Positions 4,052-34,704 of a stretch of 64,000 nt of DNA are shown here, piece after piece. The position numbers and the translations under genes were made by a program. The notes under the pieces were generated by a model. That model did not search any database. It saw only the letters and a program-made list of their open reading frames with translations, and was not told where the DNA came from. Origin of the DNA: an uncultured Bacilli bacterium. Its GTDB lineage: Bacteria > Bacillota_I > Bacilli_A > RF39 > UBA660. Location: the NCBI GenBank assembly GCA_947624955.1, contig CANQMM010000001.1:962-64961 (forward strand), written 5' to 3'. How positions within the stretch are numbered: position 1 is the stretch's first letter; every line of letters starts with the position of its first letter.

Positions 4052-5248
4052 ATGCAAGTATTCGTTATTGGCGCTGGCCCTGCCGGGCTTTCTGCTGCAA
4101 TTAGTGCAGCTCGTAATCATCATACAGTAACTATAATTGAAAAGAATAATAAAATAGGTAAAAAACTATTACTTACCGGTAATGGCCATTGTAATTTTTA
4201 TAATGCTTATCAAGATATAACTTGTTATCATTCCCATAATCTTGAGATATTTTCTTCAATCTTAGATAAGCATAACTTAGTATTACCCTTTATTGAATCC
4301 TTAGGAATCGTCTATAAACAAATAAATGGCTATTACTATCCTTATTCTAACCAATCGACGAGTATTGTTAATGCTTTATACCAAACTGCCTTAAATCTAG
4401 GTATTATATTTAAATTAGAAGAAGAGGTCCTTACGATTACTAAACCCAATACTTTTATAATTACTACAACCCAAAATACTTATCAAGCGGATAAAGTTAT
4501 TCTAGCTTGTGGCTCGAAAGCTTATCCAAAGACGGGCTCTACAGGTCAAGGATATGAACTAGCCCAATCATTTGGTCATTCTCTAATAACGCCATTACCG
4601 GCCTTAGTCCAACTGCAAGGTCAAGATAATTTTTATAAAGACTGGGAAGGTATTCGTACCGATGCCATTCTTACTTTATTCGAAAATCAGCAAATGATTA
4701 AAAAAGAACAAGGGGAAATCCAATTGACTAATTATGGTATAAGTGGTATATGTACGATGAATTTAAGTGGCGATATTTCTAGAGGTCTTGCTGCTAACAA
4801 ACAAGAGATAATTAATATCAACTTTGTCCCTTGGTTAGCCACTTCTCAAGAATTGATTACTTATCTCGATTACAAAGAAAAAACCTTAAATTATAATTTA
4901 AGTGAATTATTAGAATGCTTTCTCAATTATAAATTAGTTAATCTTATTCTTAAATTGTGTCATCTTTCTAGAGATATTCGTTGGTCTTCGGCTCCTAAAG
5001 AAAAAATAACTAATTTATTGATGTCTTTCCCTTTTAAAGTAACAAATACTAATTCTTTTGACCAAGCCCAAGTTTGTAGTGGGGGTATCCCTTTAACAGA
5101 GATCAATATCGATACGATGGAATCCCAAATGGTAAGGGGATTATATTTAGTAGGGGAATTATTAGATGTCGATGGTATTTGCGGTGGTTATAATCTAACA
5201 TTTGCTTGGTTAAGTGGGTTAATCGCCGGAGGTAGTATCCATGATTAG
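4052..5248 (+). CDS. NAD(P)/FAD-dependent oxidoreductase, HI0933/BaiN (aminoacetone oxidase-like) family
   Basis: N-terminal dinucleotide fold VFVIGAGPAGLSAAISAA; TGNGHCNF motif characteristic of HI0933-like flavoproteins; start moved from track 3995 to ATG 4052 (GGTGG RBS, typical family N-terminus). Confidence 0.75.
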   Translation: MQVFVIGAGPAGLSAAISAARNHHTVTIIEKNNKIGKKLLLTGNGHCNFYNAYQDITCYHSHNLEIFSSILDKHNLVLPFIESLGIVYKQINGYYYPYSNQSTSIVNALYQTALNLGIIFKLEEEVLTITKPNTFIITTTQNTYQADKVILACGSKAYPKTGSTGQGYELAQSFGHSLITPLPALVQLQGQDNFYKDWEGIRTDAILTLFENQQMIKKEQGEIQLTNYGISGICTMNLSGDISRGLAANKQEIININFVPWLATSQELITYLDYKEKTLNYNLSELLECFLNYKLVNLILKLCHLSRDIRWSSAPKEKITNLLMSFPFKVTNTNSFDQAQVCSGGIPLTEINIDTMESQMVRGLYLVGELLDVDGICGGYNLTFAWLSGLIAGGSIHD

Positions 5249-6824
5249 AATAAGAGAAATTAAAATACCTGTTAGTAAACCCCAAGATATCCACCTAAAA
5301 AAAGTTATTATCCAAAAATTAAATATTTCTAATCAAGAATTAATTCACTATGTCATAAAACGGCAATCTATCGATGCCCGTCATAAACCGGATGTTTACT
5401 ACGTCTATGAAGTGGATGTCACTCTTAACAATGAAGAAAAAGTCTTATCTCGTATTAAAAGTCCCAATATCTTTCAAGCTCCTAATGAAGAATATATTCC
5501 TCCCCAAAAAGGAGAGACTCCAATGACACACTGCCCAATTATCGTTGGGAGTGGTCCGGCGGGATTATTTGCGGCTTATTTATTAAGCGAGATGGGTTAT
5601 CGTCCTTTAATTATCGAAAGAGGTAAACCAATTGCTGAAAGAATTAAGGATGTTGAAGACTTTTGGCAAAACAATAAACTTAATCCCGAAAGTAATGTCT
5701 CTTTCGGTGAAGGAGGTGCCGGTACTTTTTCCGATGGTAAATTGAACACTCTCGTTAAAGACTCTCGTTTTATCGGTAAAAAAGTCTTTGAAATCTTTGT
5801 TAAATATGGAGCTCCTGAAGAAATAATGTATTCTTCTCATCCCCATATTGGTACTGATGTTTTAAGAACTGTCATAGCGAATATTCGGGAAGCAATCATC
5901 CAAATGGGTGGTCAAATCCTTTACAATACCCAACTAACCAATATAATTTTAAATTATAATAAGTTAGAAGCTATAGAGGTAAATCATCAGGAGAAAATCC
6001 CTTGTGAAGCCTTAATATTAGCCACCGGTCATAGTGCTAGAGATACTTATGAAATGTTGAGTCAATATTTAAAATTAGAAAGCAAGCCCTTTGCGATTGG
6101 TTTACGGGTAATCCATTTACAACAAATGATTAATGAAAGTCAGTATGGTAGTGCTAGTAAATATCTCCCTAATGCTAGTTATAAACTAACTTATCAAACA
6201 TCCCAGGGTCGTGGCATCTATTCCTTTTGTATGTGTCCCGGCGGTTATGTAGTCAATGCCTCAAGTGAACCCAATCATTTAGTCGTTAATGGCATGAGTA
6301 ATTACTTGCGAGATACCAAAACTGCTAATAGTGCTATCATCGTTACTATCACTCCTAATGACTATGGTAATGAACCCTTATCCGGTATCGCTTACCAAAG
6401 AGAATTAGAATCTTTAACCTATAAACTCGGTAAAGGTAATATTCCTATCCAATTATGGCAAGATTTTCTTTTAAATAGAAAATCTACTTCTTTAGGAACT
6501 GTCCCACCAATCGTTAAAGGTAATTACACCCTAGCTAATATCCGGGAAATTCTTCCTAGTTTTATCACTGAAGCCCTACTTGAAGCTATGCCGGTCTTTA
6601 ATAAAAAAATTCACGGTTTTGCTAATCCCGACACCATTCTATGTGCTATTGAATCTCGGACCTCTTCACCTGTTAGAATACCTCGTAATGAAAACTACGA
6701 ATCGCAAATTCAAGGCATCTATCCCTGTGGCGAAGGCGCCGGCTACGCTGGTGGGATAACTACATCGGCCATTGATGGCATTAAAGTAGCCGAAAGTATC
6801 ATTAAGAAATATCGCCCATTTTAA
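5241..6824 (+). CDS. FAD-dependent protein, COG2509-type uncharacterized NAD(FAD) dehydrogenase
   Basis: MIRIxEIKIP N-terminus typical of family; second Rossmann motif IVGSGPAGLFAAYLL; GEGGAGTFSDGKL motif; ATGA overlap with upstream flavoprotein gene. Confidence 0.7.
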   Translation: MIRIREIKIPVSKPQDIHLKKVIIQKLNISNQELIHYVIKRQSIDARHKPDVYYVYEVDVTLNNEEKVLSRIKSPNIFQAPNEEYIPPQKGETPMTHCPIIVGSGPAGLFAAYLLSEMGYRPLIIERGKPIAERIKDVEDFWQNNKLNPESNVSFGEGGAGTFSDGKLNTLVKDSRFIGKKVFEIFVKYGAPEEIMYSSHPHIGTDVLRTVIANIREAIIQMGGQILYNTQLTNIILNYNKLEAIEVNHQEKIPCEALILATGHSARDTYEMLSQYLKLESKPFAIGLRVIHLQQMINESQYGSASKYLPNASYKLTYQTSQGRGIYSFCMCPGGYVVNASSEPNHLVVNGMSNYLRDTKTANSAIIVTITPNDYGNEPLSGIAYQRELESLTYKLGKGNIPIQLWQDFLLNRKSTSLGTVPPIVKGNYTLANIREILPSFITEALLEAMPVFNKKIHGFANPDTILCAIESRTSSPVRIPRNENYESQIQGIYPCGEGAGYAGGITTSAIDGIKVAESIIKKYRPF

Positions 6825-13310: not shown

Positions 13311-13967
13311 GTGAGAAAAGTGCAAAACTTAGGTGAAAGATTATATGTGTTAAGAAAAAATAAAAATTTATCCCAAGAAGAAGTAGCTGAAAAACTAAAT
13401 GTAACAAGACAGACTATATCTAAGTGGGAAACCAATCAAAGTGTACCGGATTTTGATAAAGTTATGCCTTTATGTGAATTATATGGTATAACTCCCAATG
13501 AACTATTTATTGAAATAAAGGAAAATAACTCCGAGAAAAATACTAGCTCAGATATAAATTTAGAAGAAGAAAAAATTAAGACCAGTAAGAAAGCTAAAGG
13601 CATAGCTTTAAGCGTCGTCTTATATTTTTTAGGAATAGTTTGGATAATGATAGCTATACCCGTGATGAATATGAACCCCGTAGTAGCATCGGCAATATTC
13701 TTACTTATCTGTGGCTTAGCTACCGGATTAATTATTTACGTATGTATTAGATATCACAAGACTAAAACCTTAGAAGAAACTGCTGATGATAAATTAAGAC
13801 ACCAAATATCTGATGTTGTTGCCATAATCGTTACGATTATCTATCTTATTATTAGTTTCCAAACAATGGCTTGGCATTTAACTTGGATTATTTGGATTAT
13901 ATATGGCTTGTTTACGGAAATCCTAAAATTAATATTTATGCTAAGGAGATTCCCCAATGAAAAATAA
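13311..13967 (+). CDS. XRE-family HTH regulator with transmembrane domain (paralog 2 of 3)
   Basis: HTH SQEEVAEKLNVTRQTISKWETNQ; 3-4 TM helices; GTG start; 11-nt overlap with downstream DUF4097 gene. Confidence 0.7.
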   Translation: MRKVQNLGERLYVLRKNKNLSQEEVAEKLNVTRQTISKWETNQSVPDFDKVMPLCELYGITPNELFIEIKENNSEKNTSSDINLEEEKIKTSKKAKGIALSVVLYFLGIVWIMIAIPVMNMNPVVASAIFLLICGLATGLIIYVCIRYHKTKTLEETADDKLRHQISDVVAIIVTIIYLIISFQTMAWHLTWIIWIIYGLFTEILKLIFMLRRFPNEK

Positions 13968-15486: not shown

Positions 15487-15656
15487 ATGAAAAAGAAAAA
15501 ATTTTTAGAATATTATCATTTGTATTTTTTATTCTTACTCTAGCCGGAGCATTCTATGTATTCTTAAATAAAGGCGAAGCAAATCCCGGTTATGCTGTAA
15601 TACCATCTTTATTTTGTGTAATATTTTCTCAGTTAAGTATTACCAATAAAAAATAA
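15487..15656 (+). pseudogene. Possible frameshifted small hydrophobic protein gene (two consecutive short ORFs, different frames)
   Basis: MKKKKFLEYYHLYFLFLL-stop, then overlapping by 1 nt an open frame AGAFYVFLNKGEANPGYAVIPSLFCVIFSQLSITNKK-stop; lies in a 550-bp AT-rich gap. Confidence 0.25.
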
Positions 15657-16049
15657 TGATATAAAATCTTTAAAAATAGAAGCTAAAGCTTAGCAATTGT
15701 TTCAAGAAGAATGGGTATAGAATCAAAGTTCTTATACTGAAAATACTTAATTTATCAGTTTCTGACATTTTAACGATGATACGGATAAATGACAAAATGT
15801 CCGTATGAATTAACTATATTTGAAATAATTGTTCCTTAAATTATTATTTCAATTCATCCTTTATTTATTAATTACAAATTTTTAAAGTATTGGTTTAGTA
15901 TATATATTTAATATGTACAATTCATTAAAAAATAGCTTAGTCATTTTCTAAATTAGTAATGTAGATTACATTTTTGTTTAATTCTCTCTTTATGTCCTGT
16001 TTATTATTTGATGTATGCTATATAATTCTTCTTGAAAGGAGCCGAAAGG

Positions 16050-16568
16050 ATGGATCAAGAAAAAATAGGAAAGTTTATAGCCAATTTAAGAAAAGAACAA
16101 AAATTAACCCAAGAGCAACTTGCCGAAAAGTTAGGCGTATCTGATAAGTCAGTAAGTCGTTGGGAAAATGGAAAATGCCTACCTGATGTATCTTTATATA
16201 AAGATTTATGTAATATTTTAGGTATTACTCTAAATGAATTTTTTAGTGGTGAAAAAATTAAAGAAGAAAAATTCAAAGAACAAGCTGATAACAATTTATT
16301 TAATGCCTTAGAAAATAGTTCTTTTACTTTAAAAGATAAGATAAAATATTATAGTGATAAGTGGGATAAGGAACACTTTTTTGAGTTAACTATTGCAATG
16401 ATTGCTATTGTCGGATTTATAATTTACGGTTTTATAAAAGATAATGGCATCCAATATATATTTATGATAATAGGTTTTACTTATGGTATTTGGGAAAATA
16501 ATCGAAAGAAAGCATATATAGAAAGAAACGCATATAGACAAATAAGTAGTAAAAATAAAGAAAGATAA
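16050..16568 (+). CDS. XRE-family HTH regulator with transmembrane domain (paralog 3 of 3)
   Basis: N-terminus MDQEKIGKFIA... nearly identical to 9998 paralog; start re-picked at ATG after aaaggag...gaaagg (track begins at upstream TTG). Confidence 0.7.
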   Translation: MDQEKIGKFIANLRKEQKLTQEQLAEKLGVSDKSVSRWENGKCLPDVSLYKDLCNILGITLNEFFSGEKIKEEKFKEQADNNLFNALENSSFTLKDKIKYYSDKWDKEHFFELTIAMIAIVGFIIYGFIKDNGIQYIFMIIGFTYGIWENNRKKAYIERNAYRQISSKNKER

Positions 16569-16675
16569 CTCGTTGACTTTTGGACAAATTAAAAATAACC
16601 AATTTTAGCAAGCCGTTTATATGGTTTGTTTTTTAAATGTTATGACAGTTCCTATTTAAAATGATGCACAAACTA

Positions 16676-16704
16676 TTGCCAAACGTACGTTTGCGTGGTA
16701 TAAT
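16676..16704 (+). promoter_or_regulatory. Sigma-A promoter (TTGCCA-17-TGgTATAAT) with perfect 14-bp palindrome CAAACGTACGTTTG in spacer (candidate LexA/SOS-like operator)
   Basis: Hexamers, 17-nt spacing and extended -10 TG seen in sequence; palindrome 16680..16693 resembles Cheo box GAAC-N4-GTTC half-sites (AAAC-N4-GTTT). Confidence 0.5.
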
Positions 16705-16726
16705 CAATTTATCAGGAGGTAATAAA

Positions 16727-17581
16727 ATGAATCAAGATAAAATGCATTTAGTAAACAAAATATTTAATAACGAAACTATAAGAACAATATGGGATAAAGA
16801 ACAAGAAAAATACTTTATCAGTGTTGTCGATATAGTAGGGGTTGTATCCGAAAGTAAAGATGGAAGAAAGTATTGGAATAAATTAAAGCAACGCCTTAAA
16901 GAAGAAGGAAATGAGTCGGTGACAAATTGTCACCAACTGAAATTAAAATCTTCTGATGGTAAATATTACAATACTGATGTTGTCGATATCGAAGGTATGT
17001 TTCGCATAATTGAATCAATTCCGAGTAAAAACGCGGAACCTATAAAACAATGGTTAGCCAAACTAGGTAGTGAAAGAATTGATGAAACATTTGATCCTTC
17101 AATTGCTGCTCAAAGAGCGATAGATTTATATAGATTTAAAGGTTACGATGAAGAATGGATAGCCAAAAGAATTAAAGGTATTCAGGATAGAAAAAAACTT
17201 ACGGATGTATGGCAAGATGGTGGAATAAGCGAGACCAAAGAATATGCTATTCTAACGAATGAAATATACAAAGAATGGTCCGGGATGAAAGCCAATGAAT
17301 ATAAAGCATTTAAAGGTCTTAGAAAAGAATCCTTAAGAGATAATATGAGTGATATTGAGGTAGCCCTAGCTGATTTAGGCGAACTTGCTACAAGAGAAAT
17401 TGCTAAAGAATATAAGCCCTATGGTCTAGAACAAAATAAAATGATTGCTAAAATGGGTGGTAATGTTTCTAGAACTGCAAGAGATAATTTAGAGCAAAAA
17501 CTTGGCAAATCAGTAATCAGCAATCAAAATAATCTTAGTTATCAATATTTAGATGGAAAACAATTAGAAAATAAACGATAG
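16727..17581 (+). CDS. BRO-N/RhuM-N-like N-terminal domain protein with DinD-like (DNA-damage-inducible protein D family) C-terminal region
   Basis: Start re-picked at ATG after aggaggtaataaa; N-terminus ETIRTIWDKEQEKYFISVVDIVGVV aligns with N-termini of the two RhuM-like genes at 26454 and 28588; overall resembles DinD-family proteins. Confidence 0.6.
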   Translation: MNQDKMHLVNKIFNNETIRTIWDKEQEKYFISVVDIVGVVSESKDGRKYWNKLKQRLKEEGNESVTNCHQLKLKSSDGKYYNTDVVDIEGMFRIIESIPSKNAEPIKQWLAKLGSERIDETFDPSIAAQRAIDLYRFKGYDEEWIAKRIKGIQDRKKLTDVWQDGGISETKEYAILTNEIYKEWSGMKANEYKAFKGLRKESLRDNMSDIEVALADLGELATREIAKEYKPYGLEQNKMIAKMGGNVSRTARDNLEQKLGKSVISNQNNLSYQYLDGKQLENKR

Positions 17582-17752
17582 ATATAAAATATAAGACAAC
17601 ATCTTCAGTTAGTAGTATTGAAGAATATTTTGTAAATAATAATGAGTCGTCTTGTGGATTAGGTAGATTATCAAGTTAATTTGATAATCTTTTTATGCAT
17701 TGACAACTGTATATAATCTGTATATAATTTATATATACAAAAGAGGTGAACT

Positions 17753-18130
17753 ATGGAAATTATAATAAGTAATTCAAATGGTATTCCTATCTATGAACAA
17801 ATTAAAGAACAAATAAAAGTTAAAATAGTTTCTAGTGAATTAAAGGAAAATGAACTATTACCCTCTATAAGAACTTTAGCTAAAGACCTTCGCTGTAGTG
17901 TTATAACAACCAAAAATGCTTATGAAGAATTAGTTAAAGAAGGCTATGTAAAAAATGTTCCATCTAAAGGATTCTATGTTGCTCAAATAAATAAAGACGT
18001 TGCTTTAGAAGAGCAATTAAATAAGATAGAAGAATTGATGGATAAGGCAGTTTCTATTGCCAAAATGAATAACATAAAGAAAAAGACCCTAAATGAAATA
18101 TTAAATATATTATATGAGGAGGATAAATAA
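17753..18130 (+). CDS. GntR-family (YtrA-subfamily-like) transcriptional regulator
   Basis: IYEQIKEQIK...LPSIRTLAKDLRCSVITTKNAYEEL HTH; 125 aa; heads ABC operon; RBS aagaggtga. Confidence 0.75.
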   Translation: MEIIISNSNGIPIYEQIKEQIKVKIVSSELKENELLPSIRTLAKDLRCSVITTKNAYEELVKEGYVKNVPSKGFYVAQINKDVALEEQLNKIEELMDKAVSIAKMNNIKKKTLNEILNILYEEDK

Positions 18131-18987
18131 TGGAAAATATTTTAGAAATTAAAAACCTTTGTAAAAAATATGATAACTTTGAGCTTAAAAATATAACTTT
18201 TAATTTGCCTAAAGGGATGATTATGGGTTTTATAGGTGAAAATGGTGCCGGAAAGACTACAACCATAAAAGCAATATTAGATATTATTAAATCTTATGAT
18301 GGAGAAATTAAAATTTTGGGATTAGATAATCGTAAAGATGAGAGAAAAATAAAAGAAAATATTGGCGTTGTATTAGATGATATGTTCTTTCCTGAAATTC
18401 TTACACCTAATGATATAAATAATGCTATGAGAAGTATTTATAAAAATTGGGATACTAAAATGTTTAATGATTACTTAAAAGAATTTTCATTATTACCCAA
18501 TCAACAAATTAAAAAATTTTCTAAGGGTATGAGAAAAAAACTAGAAATAGCAACCGCATTATCTCATCATCCTAAACTTTTAATATTAGATGAACCTACT
18601 TCAGGGCTTGATCCAGTTGCTCGAGCAGAAGTAATTCAAATATTTCAAAGTTTTATTGAAAAAGATGATTGCTCCATTTTACTATCTAGTCATATTACCA
18701 CCGATTTAGAACACATCGCTGATTATATAACTTTTATCAATAATGGAGAAATCGTTTTATCGAAAACAACTAATGAATTATTAGAACAATATGCCATTGT
18801 TAAATGTACTGAAAAAGAATTTAAAAAAATTAATAAAAAAGACTATATCAAATACCTTAAAGCAAAATATGAATATGAAGTTTTAATCGCCAATAAAAAA
18901 GATTTTAAATCAAAATATGATATTACAGTAATAGATAAAATAACTTTAGACGACCTTATGGTTTTAATGATTAAGGGGGAAGAATAA
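18130..18987 (+). CDS. ABC transporter ATP-binding protein (ABC-2 type)
   Basis: Walker A GENGAGKTT, signature and Walker B LILDEPTSGLD; 1-nt overlap with gntR-like gene. Confidence 0.85.
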   Translation: MENILEIKNLCKKYDNFELKNITFNLPKGMIMGFIGENGAGKTTTIKAILDIIKSYDGEIKILGLDNRKDERKIKENIGVVLDDMFFPEILTPNDINNAMRSIYKNWDTKMFNDYLKEFSLLPNQQIKKFSKGMRKKLEIATALSHHPKLLILDEPTSGLDPVARAEVIQIFQSFIEKDDCSILLSSHITTDLEHIADYITFINNGEIVLSKTTNELLEQYAIVKCTEKEFKKINKKDYIKYLKAKYEYEVLIANKKDFKSKYDITVIDKITLDDLMVLMIKGEE

Positions 18988-26314: not shown

Positions 26315-26453
26315 TGCCAAAGCAAAAACCCAAATAGTAAAAACTAAATTGCCCAAAGCTTGTTAAAACTTTGTTTGTGCGATATAATAAAGTTAGCAAA
26401 AAGTAAACAGTAAAAGTTCTATAGCTAACACAAACAGAAGGGGAAATATAAAT

Positions 26454-27416
26454 ATGAAAAATGAAATTATATTATTTGAAAATCAAAATGTTAAATTAGA
26501 GGTCAATATGCAAGATGAAACAGTATGGCTTTCATTAGAACAAATGGCTAAACTGTTTGACCGAGATAGAACAGTTATAGCAAGGCATATAAATAATGTT
26601 TTTAAAGATAATGAATTGGATAGGAATGAGGTATGTGCAAAGTTTGCACATACCACAAAACATGGAGCATTATCCGGTAAAACTCAAGTCAAAGAATTAA
26701 ATTACTATAATCTTGATATGATTATAAGTGTAGGTTACCGGGTAAAATCTAAAAATGGTATTATTTTTAGAAAATGGGCAACTAATGTCTTAAAAGATTA
26801 TATGGTTAAAGGTTATGCTGTTAATCAAAAACGATTAGAATATCTAGAGAAAACAATTAAATTAATCGATATTGCCGGTCGAATAGATGACGAATTACAA
26901 GGAACCGAAATCAAAGAAATAATAAAAGTCATAAATAATTATTCCCATGCTCTAAACTTATTAGATGATTATGATCATAAAAAAATAATAAAGCCCAAAG
27001 GAATTAAAAATAATAAAAAAATCACTTATGAAGATTGTAAGAATATAATTAGTAACCTTAAATTTAGTAATGATAGTGAATTGTTTGCACTTGAAAGAAA
27101 TGAAGGTTTAAAAGAAATTATTGGTTCAATATATCAAACTTTTGATGGTAAAGATTTATATCCTACTATTGAAGAAAAAGCCGCTAATTTCTTATATTTA
27201 ATAACTAAAAACCATACATTTATTGATGGCAATAAAAGAATAGCTGCCACATTATTTATCTATTTCTTAGAGTTTTATAATATTCTATATAACGAGAAAG
27301 GACAAGTAATTGATAACAATACTTTAGTCGCCATTACAATACTAATAGCTCAATCTAATCCCAAAGAAAAAAATATACTCATAGACTTAGTAATGAACTT
27401 TTTAGTTTCAAAATAA
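26454..27416 (+). CDS. RhuM-N-terminal domain fused to Doc/Fic domain (death-on-curing-type toxin motif HTFIDGNKR)
   Basis: N-terminal ~130 aa homologous to RhuM gene at 28588 (WLSLEQMAKLF...ISVGYRV...WATNVLK vs FWLTQKTMAELF...IAVGYRV...WATNTLK); C-terminal HxFxDGNKR Doc-type Fic motif; promoter TTGTTA-17-TATAAT at 26360..26388. Confidence 0.65.
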   Translation: MKNEIILFENQNVKLEVNMQDETVWLSLEQMAKLFDRDRTVIARHINNVFKDNELDRNEVCAKFAHTTKHGALSGKTQVKELNYYNLDMIISVGYRVKSKNGIIFRKWATNVLKDYMVKGYAVNQKRLEYLEKTIKLIDIAGRIDDELQGTEIKEIIKVINNYSHALNLLDDYDHKKIIKPKGIKNNKKITYEDCKNIISNLKFSNDSELFALERNEGLKEIIGSIYQTFDGKDLYPTIEEKAANFLYLITKNHTFIDGNKRIAATLFIYFLEFYNILYNEKGQVIDNNTLVAITILIAQSNPKEKNILIDLVMNFLVSK

Positions 27417-28507: not shown

Positions 28508-28536
28508 TTGCCAAACAAATGTTCTTGATATATAAT
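28508..28536 (+). promoter_or_regulatory. Sigma-A promoter (TTGCCA-17-TATAAT) with AAAC-AAAT-GTTC inverted repeat in spacer
   Basis: Same TTGCCAAAC...TATAAT architecture as the DinD-like promoter at 16676; inverted repeat 28514..28525 matches GAAC-N4-GTTC on one half-site. Confidence 0.45.
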
Positions 28537-28587
28537 ATTTTTATCAAAGGATTTACTATGCCAAAAAAGAAAGAGAGGATTTTTATA

Positions 28588-29598
28588 ATGAATTTAAATA
28601 CTTTAAAAGATTTAATTTTATATCAAAGTCAGAATACAAATCAAACAATTGAAGTTTTATATGAGAATGAAGATTTTTGGCTAACTCAAAAAACAATGGC
28701 AGAGTTATTTAAGGTTAAAGTTAATACAATTAATTATCATTTAAAAGAAATATTTTCCAATAATGAATTAAATGAAAATTCAGTTATTCGAAAAATTCGA
28801 ATAACTGCCACTGATGGTAAAGATTACAATACAAACTCTTATAGTTTAGATGCCATTATTGCAGTTGGCTATCGTGTTAATTCAAAGGAAGCAACTGAGT
28901 TTAGAATATGGGCAACTAATACCTTAAAGGAATATATCAAAAAAGGATTTGTGTTAAATACCGAATTATTAAAAAATGGTCCAAAATTTGGTAAAGATTA
29001 CTTTGATGAATTGCTAGTTAAAATCAAAGAAATTAGAGCAAGCGAAAGAAGATTTTATCAAAAAATCACCGACATTTATAAAGAATGTAGTTATGATTAT
29101 GATAAAAATAGTGAAATTACAAAAGAGTTTTACAAAAATGTGCAAAATAAACTCCACTTTGCTATCACAGGAATGACTGCACCAGAAATCATATACAATA
29201 GAGTCGATTCCAAAAAAGATTATATGGGACTTCAAACTTGGAAAAATGCTCCTGATGGGAAAGTACTTGAAACGGATGTTGTAGTTGCTAAAAATTATTT
29301 GCAAGAAGAAGAAATAAAAGAATTAAATAATTTAGTTTCTATGTATTTAGATTTTGCTGAACGCCAAGTAAAATTAGGTCATATTATTTCTATGAAAGAA
29401 TGGAAAGATAAATTAGAATTATTTTTAAAGTTAAATGAATATAACATTTTACAAGATAATGATAAAATAACAAGAGAAATAGCTGATAAATTAGCACTTG
29501 ATGAATATGAAAAATATAGAGTTGTACAGGATCAAAAATATATATCTGATTTTGATGAACTTTTAATTGAAACCCAAAACATCGAATCATCAGAATAA
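28588..29598 (+). CDS. RhuM-family protein (virulence protein RhuM-like), full length
   Basis: Start re-picked at ATG after agagagga (track 28519); ~336 aa; conserved N-terminal domain shared with 26454 and 16727 genes. Confidence 0.7.
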   Translation: MNLNTLKDLILYQSQNTNQTIEVLYENEDFWLTQKTMAELFKVKVNTINYHLKEIFSNNELNENSVIRKIRITATDGKDYNTNSYSLDAIIAVGYRVNSKEATEFRIWATNTLKEYIKKGFVLNTELLKNGPKFGKDYFDELLVKIKEIRASERRFYQKITDIYKECSYDYDKNSEITKEFYKNVQNKLHFAITGMTAPEIIYNRVDSKKDYMGLQTWKNAPDGKVLETDVVVAKNYLQEEEIKELNNLVSMYLDFAERQVKLGHIISMKEWKDKLELFLKLNEYNILQDNDKITREIADKLALDEYEKYRVVQDQKYISDFDELLIETQNIESSE

Positions 29599-34565: not shown

Positions 34566-34704
34566 AAAGGAGTAATTAATTTTATTCCTTTTTTAAGACT
34601 TTCAATTCAAACAAACGTATGCTATAATAAAAATGTAATAAACAATAAAAATAATATTCAAATAAAGTTTTATTTGGTATAATTTTTATGACAAGGTGGT
34701 AAAA

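Follow-up and report, generated by a model that had tools for sequence, protein, structure and literature searches.

The locus studied here raises the question of what controls a DinD-like gene of an uncultured bacterium of the Bacilli (RF39), and whether a palindrome located in the promoter of this gene is an operator of the SOS response. The gene encodes a protein of 284 amino acids with a Bro-N domain and is referred to below as the Bro-N gene; 'the window' is the whole stretch of DNA that was analysed (64,000 nucleotides of contig CANQMM010000001.1), and the coordinates of the features around the gene are positions in it. Based on the placement of the palindrome within the promoter, the conservation of the box in homologous promoters and its rank in a scan with an independent matrix of LexA operators, the palindrome is probably a Gram-positive LexA operator (Cheo or SOS box, GAAC-N4-GTTC) in a variant form with AAAC and GTTT half-sites.

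The palindrome and the promoter are both present as described in the original prediction. The palindrome, CAAACGTACGTTTG, occupies positions 16680–16693, is identical to its own reverse complement over 14 bp and is the sole exact copy within the 64-kb window. Its layout is CAAAC-GTAC-GTTTG, in which AAAC and GTTT form inverted 4-bp half-sites with a gap of exactly 4 bp. The promoter (16676–16704, + strand) consists of the −35 hexamer TTGCCA (16676–16681), which shares its final two bases with the start of the palindrome, a spacer of 17 bp and the extended −10 element TGgTATAAT (16696–16704). In a consensus scan this promoter showed 11 of 12 consensus matches as well as the TG extension, and it was the second-best in the region. 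The ribosome-binding site AGGAGG (16714–16719, + strand) is located 7 nt 5′ of the ATG at 16727 and is kept upstream of the homologues. As the palindrome covers 2 bp of the −35 hexamer and 12 of the 17 bp of the spacer, it overlaps the core promoter, and a repressor bound to it would occlude RNA polymerase, in line with what had been proposed for this site.

The conservation of the box was analysed in the upstream regions of 83 homologue copies from 80 genomes. A simple box rule, [AG]AAC-N4-GT[AT][CT] between positions −97 and −17, identified a box in 30 of the 83 copies, compared with a mean of 0.94 in shuffled upstream regions (maximum 5 in 500). The background rate of this rule is 0.015 per 80 bp, and the motif is approximately 30-fold above background in the homologous promoters. 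Using a position matrix, the box was found at most 100 bp from the start in 34 of the 83 copies, and slightly further upstream in a few others. Many of the homologous promoters are near consensus and carry the dyad at the same place; the commonest arrangement is TTG....AGAACAAATGTTTGATAyAAT and the commonest form of the box is AGAACAAATGTTTG.

Four of the homologous loci (L001, L061, L062 and L069) are syntenic relatives, which share with the window both the upstream terminator and the promoter. In their alignment with the window the TTG of the −35 hexamer, the half-sites AAAC and GTTTG and the TAT-AT of the −10 element are invariant and the spacing is fixed, whereas the 4-bp centres are GTAC, GTTT, ATAT, ATAT and GCTT. 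Invariant half-sites around a drifting 4-bp gap are the footprint that would be expected of a dimeric repressor reading two half-sites of 4–5 bp. Boxes with AAAC as the left half also recur in L003, L018, L031, L038, L059 and L060, as well as in the IMG/VR contig L168.

Concerning the repressor, the half-sites had been likened to those of the Gram-positive LexA box, and the orthologous promoters strengthen this comparison. The form AGAACAAATGTTTG, which they carry at the same position, equals the recA operator of Clostridioides difficile, GAGAACAAATGTTTGT, and resembles the lexA operator of the same species, AGGAACAAATGTTTGC; both operators showed stable LexA binding and belong to the high-affinity group in surface plasmon resonance (SPR) (PMC4234289). 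A fragment with two AAAC-N4-GTTC boxes is also stably bound by C. difficile LexA in SPR and falls into the same high-affinity group (PMC4234289). The Gram-positive LexA operator (CGAAC-N4-GTTCG; Bacillus subtilis, C. difficile) and the palindrome have in common a dyad of 4-bp half-sites, 4 unconstrained bp between them and the overlap with the core promoter, and the palindrome has the same right half, GTTTG, as the recA and lexA operators of C. difficile. To avoid circularity, an independent matrix, for which 11 validated LexA operators of C. difficile were the sole input, was scanned against the 63,985 positions of the window. The first-ranking site was that of a RhuM-family gene (14.9 bits), the palindrome was third (11.3 bits) and a site upstream of pcrA was 17th.

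The motif is also found upstream of genes other than Bro-N. Using the position matrix, it was located 29–40 bp upstream of Y-family DNA polymerase genes (Pfam: IMS) in four relatives (L006, L021, L031 and L068), and it also occurs upstream of RhuM-family genes (twice in L005) and of a KilA-N gene (L038). In L031 the two forms of the box are found on the same contig: the Bro-N gene has CAAACAAGTGTTTG, with two CAAAC halves as in the window (CAAAC...GTTTG), and the polymerase gene, 5.4 kb away, has CGAACAAGTGTTCT, which is of the CGAAC...GTTC type. Within the window there are three matrix hits of at least 13.8, all of them intergenic and in promoter spacers (Bro-N, RhuM and pcrA genes), and all three predicted boxes carry a CAAAC half-site rather than GAAC.

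The RhuM-gene promoter (TTGCCAAACAAATGTTCTTGATATATAAT, 28508–28536, + strand) is near-identical in design to the promoter with the palindrome, and no LexA-like site in the window scores higher than its box, AAACAAATGTTC at 28513–28524; the gene probably starts at 28559 or 28589 and ends at 29598. The Bro-N promoter of L049 has nearly the same sequence as this RhuM promoter, so that Bro-N and RhuM genes seem to have such promoter–box modules in common. The third box is weaker (CAAACAAACGTATG, 34608–34621) and abuts the −10 element of a distal promoter ahead of pcrA–ligA (TTTCAA-17-TATAAT, TTTCAATTCAAACAAACGTATGCTATAAT, 34600–34628, + strand); a second pcrA–ligA promoter, box-free and with the extended −10 element TGgTATAAT (about 34676–34684), is nearer to the gene. 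The small set of SOS genes common to B. subtilis and Escherichia coli includes pcrA and polY2, and pcrA is SOS-induced in B. subtilis (PMC12448304). Of the SOS genes near which the motif would be expected, the Y-family polymerase genes of the four relatives and, weakly, pcrA in the window have it upstream; lexA, recA and uvr genes were absent from the DNA that was available.

The closest published case is the LexA-controlled rhuM (death-on-curing) of the human gut SOS meta-regulon, whose source is likewise uncultured Firmicutes of the gut (Cornish et al. 2014, PMC3998124). In an electrophoretic mobility shift assay, B. subtilis LexA bound the box upstream of this gut-metagenome rhuM gene (PMC3998124). 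There a LexA box, and at the RhuM gene of the window a predicted one, precedes a gene with a DNA-binding N-terminal domain of mobile-element type. The published site is the full consensus, TCGAACAAATGTTCGA, and lies 96 bp upstream, whereas the window sites are AAAC variants inside the promoter spacer; also, the published gene is RhuM and that of the palindrome is Bro-N.

Overall, the SOS reading of the original prediction is supported in silico, and we infer that LexA exists in the organism, that it binds the palindrome and that the Bro-N gene is damage-inducible. In the mechanism that we propose, a LexA dimer on the dyad would cover most of the spacer as well as the last part of the −35 hexamer, RNA polymerase would be excluded and the gene would be off. 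Upon DNA damage, RecA filaments would trigger the self-cleavage of LexA; the operator would then be freed, the near-consensus extended −10 promoter would fire and the Bro-N/DinD-like DNA-binding protein would be made. Since both half-sites have the weaker AAAC/GTTT form, the predicted binding of LexA is probably looser than at core SOS operators, and with looser binding the Bro-N gene would be released early or at low damage. The predicted operator is therefore probably a low-affinity, early-released one. Another possibility, which is suggested by the CAAAC half-site shared by all three predicted boxes of the window, is that the LexA of this lineage may have shifted its preference from GAAC to CAAAC half-sites.

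A number of observations weigh against the assignment of the palindrome to LexA. Each of its half-sites matches GAAC or GTTC at three of four bases and the outer base deviates in both; the left half of the Gram-positive operator is [CA]GAAC, compared with CAAAC here, and neither half of the palindrome has the preferred outer G/C. In the table of C. difficile operators every entry keeps at least one GAAC or GTTC half, with which GTTT is always paired (PMC4234289), and the 11.3 bits of the palindrome are near the low end of the range of the validated C. difficile operators (2.2–16.7). The genes lexA and recA were searched for using phmmer with B. subtilis queries, in the window and in 80 loci each from genomes and metagenomes; neither gene was found in the window or in approximately 1.7 Mb of related loci, and the sole match was to a prophage repressor in L062, of the CI-like XRE plus S24 kind. 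The box is missing from about half of the homologue copies, often inside operons, and among the phage-borne (IMG/VR) relatives a LexA-like box is present in just 2 of 58 distinct upstream regions. The pcrA box is kept only in the closest relatives (L081, L082 and L124) and is absent from the more distant ones; the apparent pcrA boxes of L083 and L084 proved to be terminator hairpins, and the pcrA-centred loci contained no other intergenic boxes. Finally, the window contains 8 perfect 14-bp palindromes, with 10.6 ± 3.3 expected from first-order Markov simulations, and 1 with at least six G/C, with 1.1 expected; RAAC-N4-GTTY is not over-represented either (3 occurrences, 4.7 expected). The palindrome alone is statistically unremarkable in AT-rich DNA, and the signal lies in its placement and conservation.

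Among the alternatives, the one that survives best is that the palindrome is a decayed LexA box, although we regard this as unlikely. An ancestral AGAAC-N4-GTTTG would have lost its strong half through a change from G to A, the binding of LexA would no longer be useful and the strong promoter would be constitutive. Such decay would account for the weak form of both halves, and several operators whose right half was weakened were not stably bound by C. difficile LexA (PMC4234289). This genome does show decay, as the nearby RhuM–Fic promoter (26360–26388) is clearly damaged, with a 3-bp spacing, and the boxless half of the homologues manage without an operator of this kind. However, across at least five syntenic species the 4-bp gap and the flanks change but AAAC and GTTTG do not, which argues for selection on the half-sites and not for decay. 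The flanking C and G, which extend the dyad, are also kept, and boxes of the AAAC type recur in several other lineages.

Slightly less probable again is that the operator is real and is bound by a different repressor: the Bro-N, RhuM or KilA-N proteins themselves, an XRE plus S24 repressor or a lineage-specific regulator. Proteins of the first three kinds all have DNA-binding N-terminal domains and are the products of most of the boxed genes; the negative result of the lexA search and the sharing of CAAAC, not GAAC, by the three window sites also agree with such a repressor. On the other hand, the motif is also present upstream of Y-family polymerase genes and of pcrA, the form in which it is commonest matches LexA operators that have been validated, and the matrix built from LexA operators alone singles out the window sites within 64 kb. 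Neither of the neighbouring regulators is conserved beside the box: XRE adjoins 1 of 34 boxed loci and GntR none of the 34, and both were rejected as candidates. A LacI/PurR-type operator, with CAAAC and GTTTG joined without a spacer, was also rejected, based on the fixed 4-bp gap of free sequence in the relatives. The weakest alternative, a chance palindrome with no regulatory role, agrees with the expected frequencies given above but is very improbable, as the palindrome is located exactly in the promoter spacer, the motif is some 30-fold above background in orthologous promoters and the module at 28508–28536 repeats the same promoter and box in near-identical form.

Having considered these alternatives, we retain LexA as the probable repressor and turn to the gene that it would control. 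The Bro-N gene is located at 16727–17581 (+ strand); an open reading frame start at 16661 is an artefact of the open reading frame listing, and the homologues begin at the methionine of MNQDK. The gene is flanked by two terminator-like hairpins, both on the + strand and each followed by a T run. The upstream one (16607–16638) has its stem at 16607–16630, followed by TTTTAAATGT, closes the gene of an XRE-family membrane protein (16032–16568) and is conserved in L061 and L062; the other (17665–17695), which lies 3′ of the Bro-N gene, has the stem AGATTATCAA / TTGATAATCT at 17665–17690 and a fold z-score of −2.7. The presence of terminator-like hairpins on both sides indicates a single-gene transcription unit, i.e. 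a monocistronic gene. An Rfam search of 15500–18200 returned no known RNA element.

The protein consists of an N-terminal Bro-N domain and a C-terminal helical domain that is DinD/DdrC-like. The Bro-N domain (residues 18–111) scores 32.1 bits with Pfam PF02498 (gathering cut-off 25.6, E 1.8e-7), and the Pfam search of the protein found no ANT/KilA-C domain. The gene had been placed in the DinD/BRO-N family; this stands as far as the Bro-N domain and the two-domain DinD layout are concerned, but the NCBIfam DinD model (NF008573) gives 20.2 bits, below its equivalog cut-off of 242. E. coli DinD has the same domain order (Bro-N at 10–105) and a collinear C-terminal domain, although the two proteins are very distant (BLASTP: 28% identity over 60 amino acids). 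Judged from these sequence comparisons, 'DinD-like' is fair as a description of architecture and remote homology, not of orthology. Upstream of E. coli dinD lies CTGTATATAAATACAG, and both genes have in their promoters the LexA box appropriate to their clade (here a predicted one); the operator types differ, CTGT-N8-ACAG in E. coli dinD and GAAC-N4-GTTC at the gene studied here. In E. coli, dinD is repressed by LexA, and DinD modulates or inhibits RecA filaments.

The remote relationships of the protein were analysed with a diverse family alignment, obtained by scanning 1.84 billion cluster representatives, which gave 9,282 hits at E ≤ 1e-3; on this alignment a structure model of the 284-amino-acid protein was also built. 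Using hhalign, the C-terminal domain was matched to that of E. coli DinD with 79% probability (E 1.5e-5; residues 152–259 to 143–248). The family profile also matches DdrC of Deinococcus radiodurans, a damage-induced protein that binds DNA breaks, at E 6.6e-5 (140–256 to 114–223), with a sequence identity of approximately 12–15%; phmmer with E. coli DinD alone gave no match to DdrC. The layout is DdrC-like, with a winged-helix (Dachshund-like) N-terminal domain and, at the C-terminus, a helical domain of the DdrC fold. DdrC, a member of the radiation/desiccation response (RDR) regulon, is stated to have no identifiable sequence homologues outside Deinococcus (PMC11347143); the repressor of this regulon is DdrO, not LexA (PMC5552922). 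No paper naming DdrC together with Bro-N was found in the literature searched.

The likeness to DinD and DdrC would fit a damage-response role for the Bro-N gene. More tentatively, and at somewhat less than an even chance, a single, very large superfamily of DNA-break-sensing or RecA-modulating DNA-binding proteins, not connected before, may link E. coli DinD, the gut-Bacilli family and Deinococcus DdrC, and may have come under damage control three separate times. The three controls would be an E. coli-type LexA box, a Firmicute-type LexA box (the palindrome) and the DdrO-controlled RDR regulon. If the link holds, DdrC has relatives at the level of both sequence and fold in a family that comprises over 9,000 protein clusters and connects to E. 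coli DinD.

Homologues with approximately 75–85% identity are very numerous in metagenome-assembled genomes of uncultured low-GC gut bacteria (rabbit, ruminants, humans), which are named 'Bacilli bacterium', Mycoplasmatota or Tenericutes. A relative of the Bro-N protein is encoded on at least 577 stretches of the species-representative genome collection, and homologues at about the 80% level are spread over hundreds of genomes. The gene is found in varied chromosomal contexts, and the window is itself a chromosomal stretch with housekeeping genes (pcrA, ligA and the genes of a murein ligase, asparagine synthase and phosphoribosyl pyrophosphate synthetase). The literature searched contained nothing on RF39 together with the SOS response, and no regulatory information on this group of uncultured small-genome gut Bacilli.

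Concerning phages, the N-terminal Bro-N domain is common to the protein and to the phage Bro-N/KilA-C (ANT) antirepressors, which include AriS-like proteins (PMC9043618), and one homologue is named 'phage antirepressor' in its database record. In contrast to the antirepressors, which have ANT/KilA-C, the C-terminal domain of the protein resembles those of DinD and DdrC. IMG/VR contains 168 relatives on predicted viral contigs (L168–L247), mostly with 45–58% identity, higher GC and a location usually within operons. The phage collection contained a homologue on just four unannotated virome fragments, and a phage origin of the gene was rejected. The phage-borne relatives are at most 58% identical, except one at 70%, and are, apart from the two upstream regions mentioned above, without the box, which makes the operator a feature specific to the low-GC chromosomal subfamily.

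Some further arrangements of the operator were observed in the relatives and in the window. In L076 (4643–6858 of that locus) the sequence TGCAAACGTATGTTTGTG, which is very like the window operator, is located 92 bp upstream of an IS605-family TnpB gene (4735–5841), and the Bro-N homologue follows shortly after this gene; the operator–promoter may have been separated from its gene by the arrival of the insertion element. In L038 (4955–6873) a KilA-N gene and the Bro-N homologue are in tandem, with the identical box TATAAACAAATGTTTGAT before each, and in L005 the Bro-N gene is preceded by two RhuM-family genes, each with its own box. In these two loci, genes with Bro-N, KilA-N and RhuM N-terminal domains cluster and share the operator. 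The RhuM–Fic (death-on-curing-like) gene of the window (26454–27416) has a promoter of the same design, TTGTTAAAACTTTGTTTGTGCGATATAAT, in which the half-sites are 3 bp apart (AAAC-TTT-GTTTG); its box looks like a one-base deletion of the operator, and the orthologue in L005 has a properly spaced box, GAACAAATGTTT.

The surroundings of the Bro-N gene include two other features. Downstream, at 17700–17728, is the consensus promoter (TTGACA-17-TATAAT) of a GntR-family gene and its ATP-binding cassette transporter operon; it holds a tandem 11-bp direct repeat, CTGTATATAAT CTGTATATAAT (17707–17728), which includes the −10 element and may be a GntR autoregulatory site. Upstream, two paralogous-looking genes (13311–13967 and 16032–16568) each code for an XRE-type helix-turn-helix domain, to which a membrane-spanning C-terminal region is fused. 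Both lie among small predicted membrane or secreted proteins and are unrelated to the operator.

With regard to the biology of the group, the Firmicute LexA operator type is known, and what is unusual here is the pairing of two AAAC/GTTT half-sites before a DinD-like gene. With this result, the predicted SOS regulon of the uncultured small-genome gut Bacilli, a large group, gains a gene that is strongly conserved and widespread. Selection also appears to maintain operators with two AAAC/GTTT half-sites, which bears on how low-GC genomes are searched for LexA boxes: the palindrome site would escape the usual searches anchored on GAAC. If the link between DdrC and DinD is true, break sensing and the inhibition of RecA filaments could be general to a pan-bacterial damage-inducible family, and the connection between DinD and DdrC may matter more than the operator itself.
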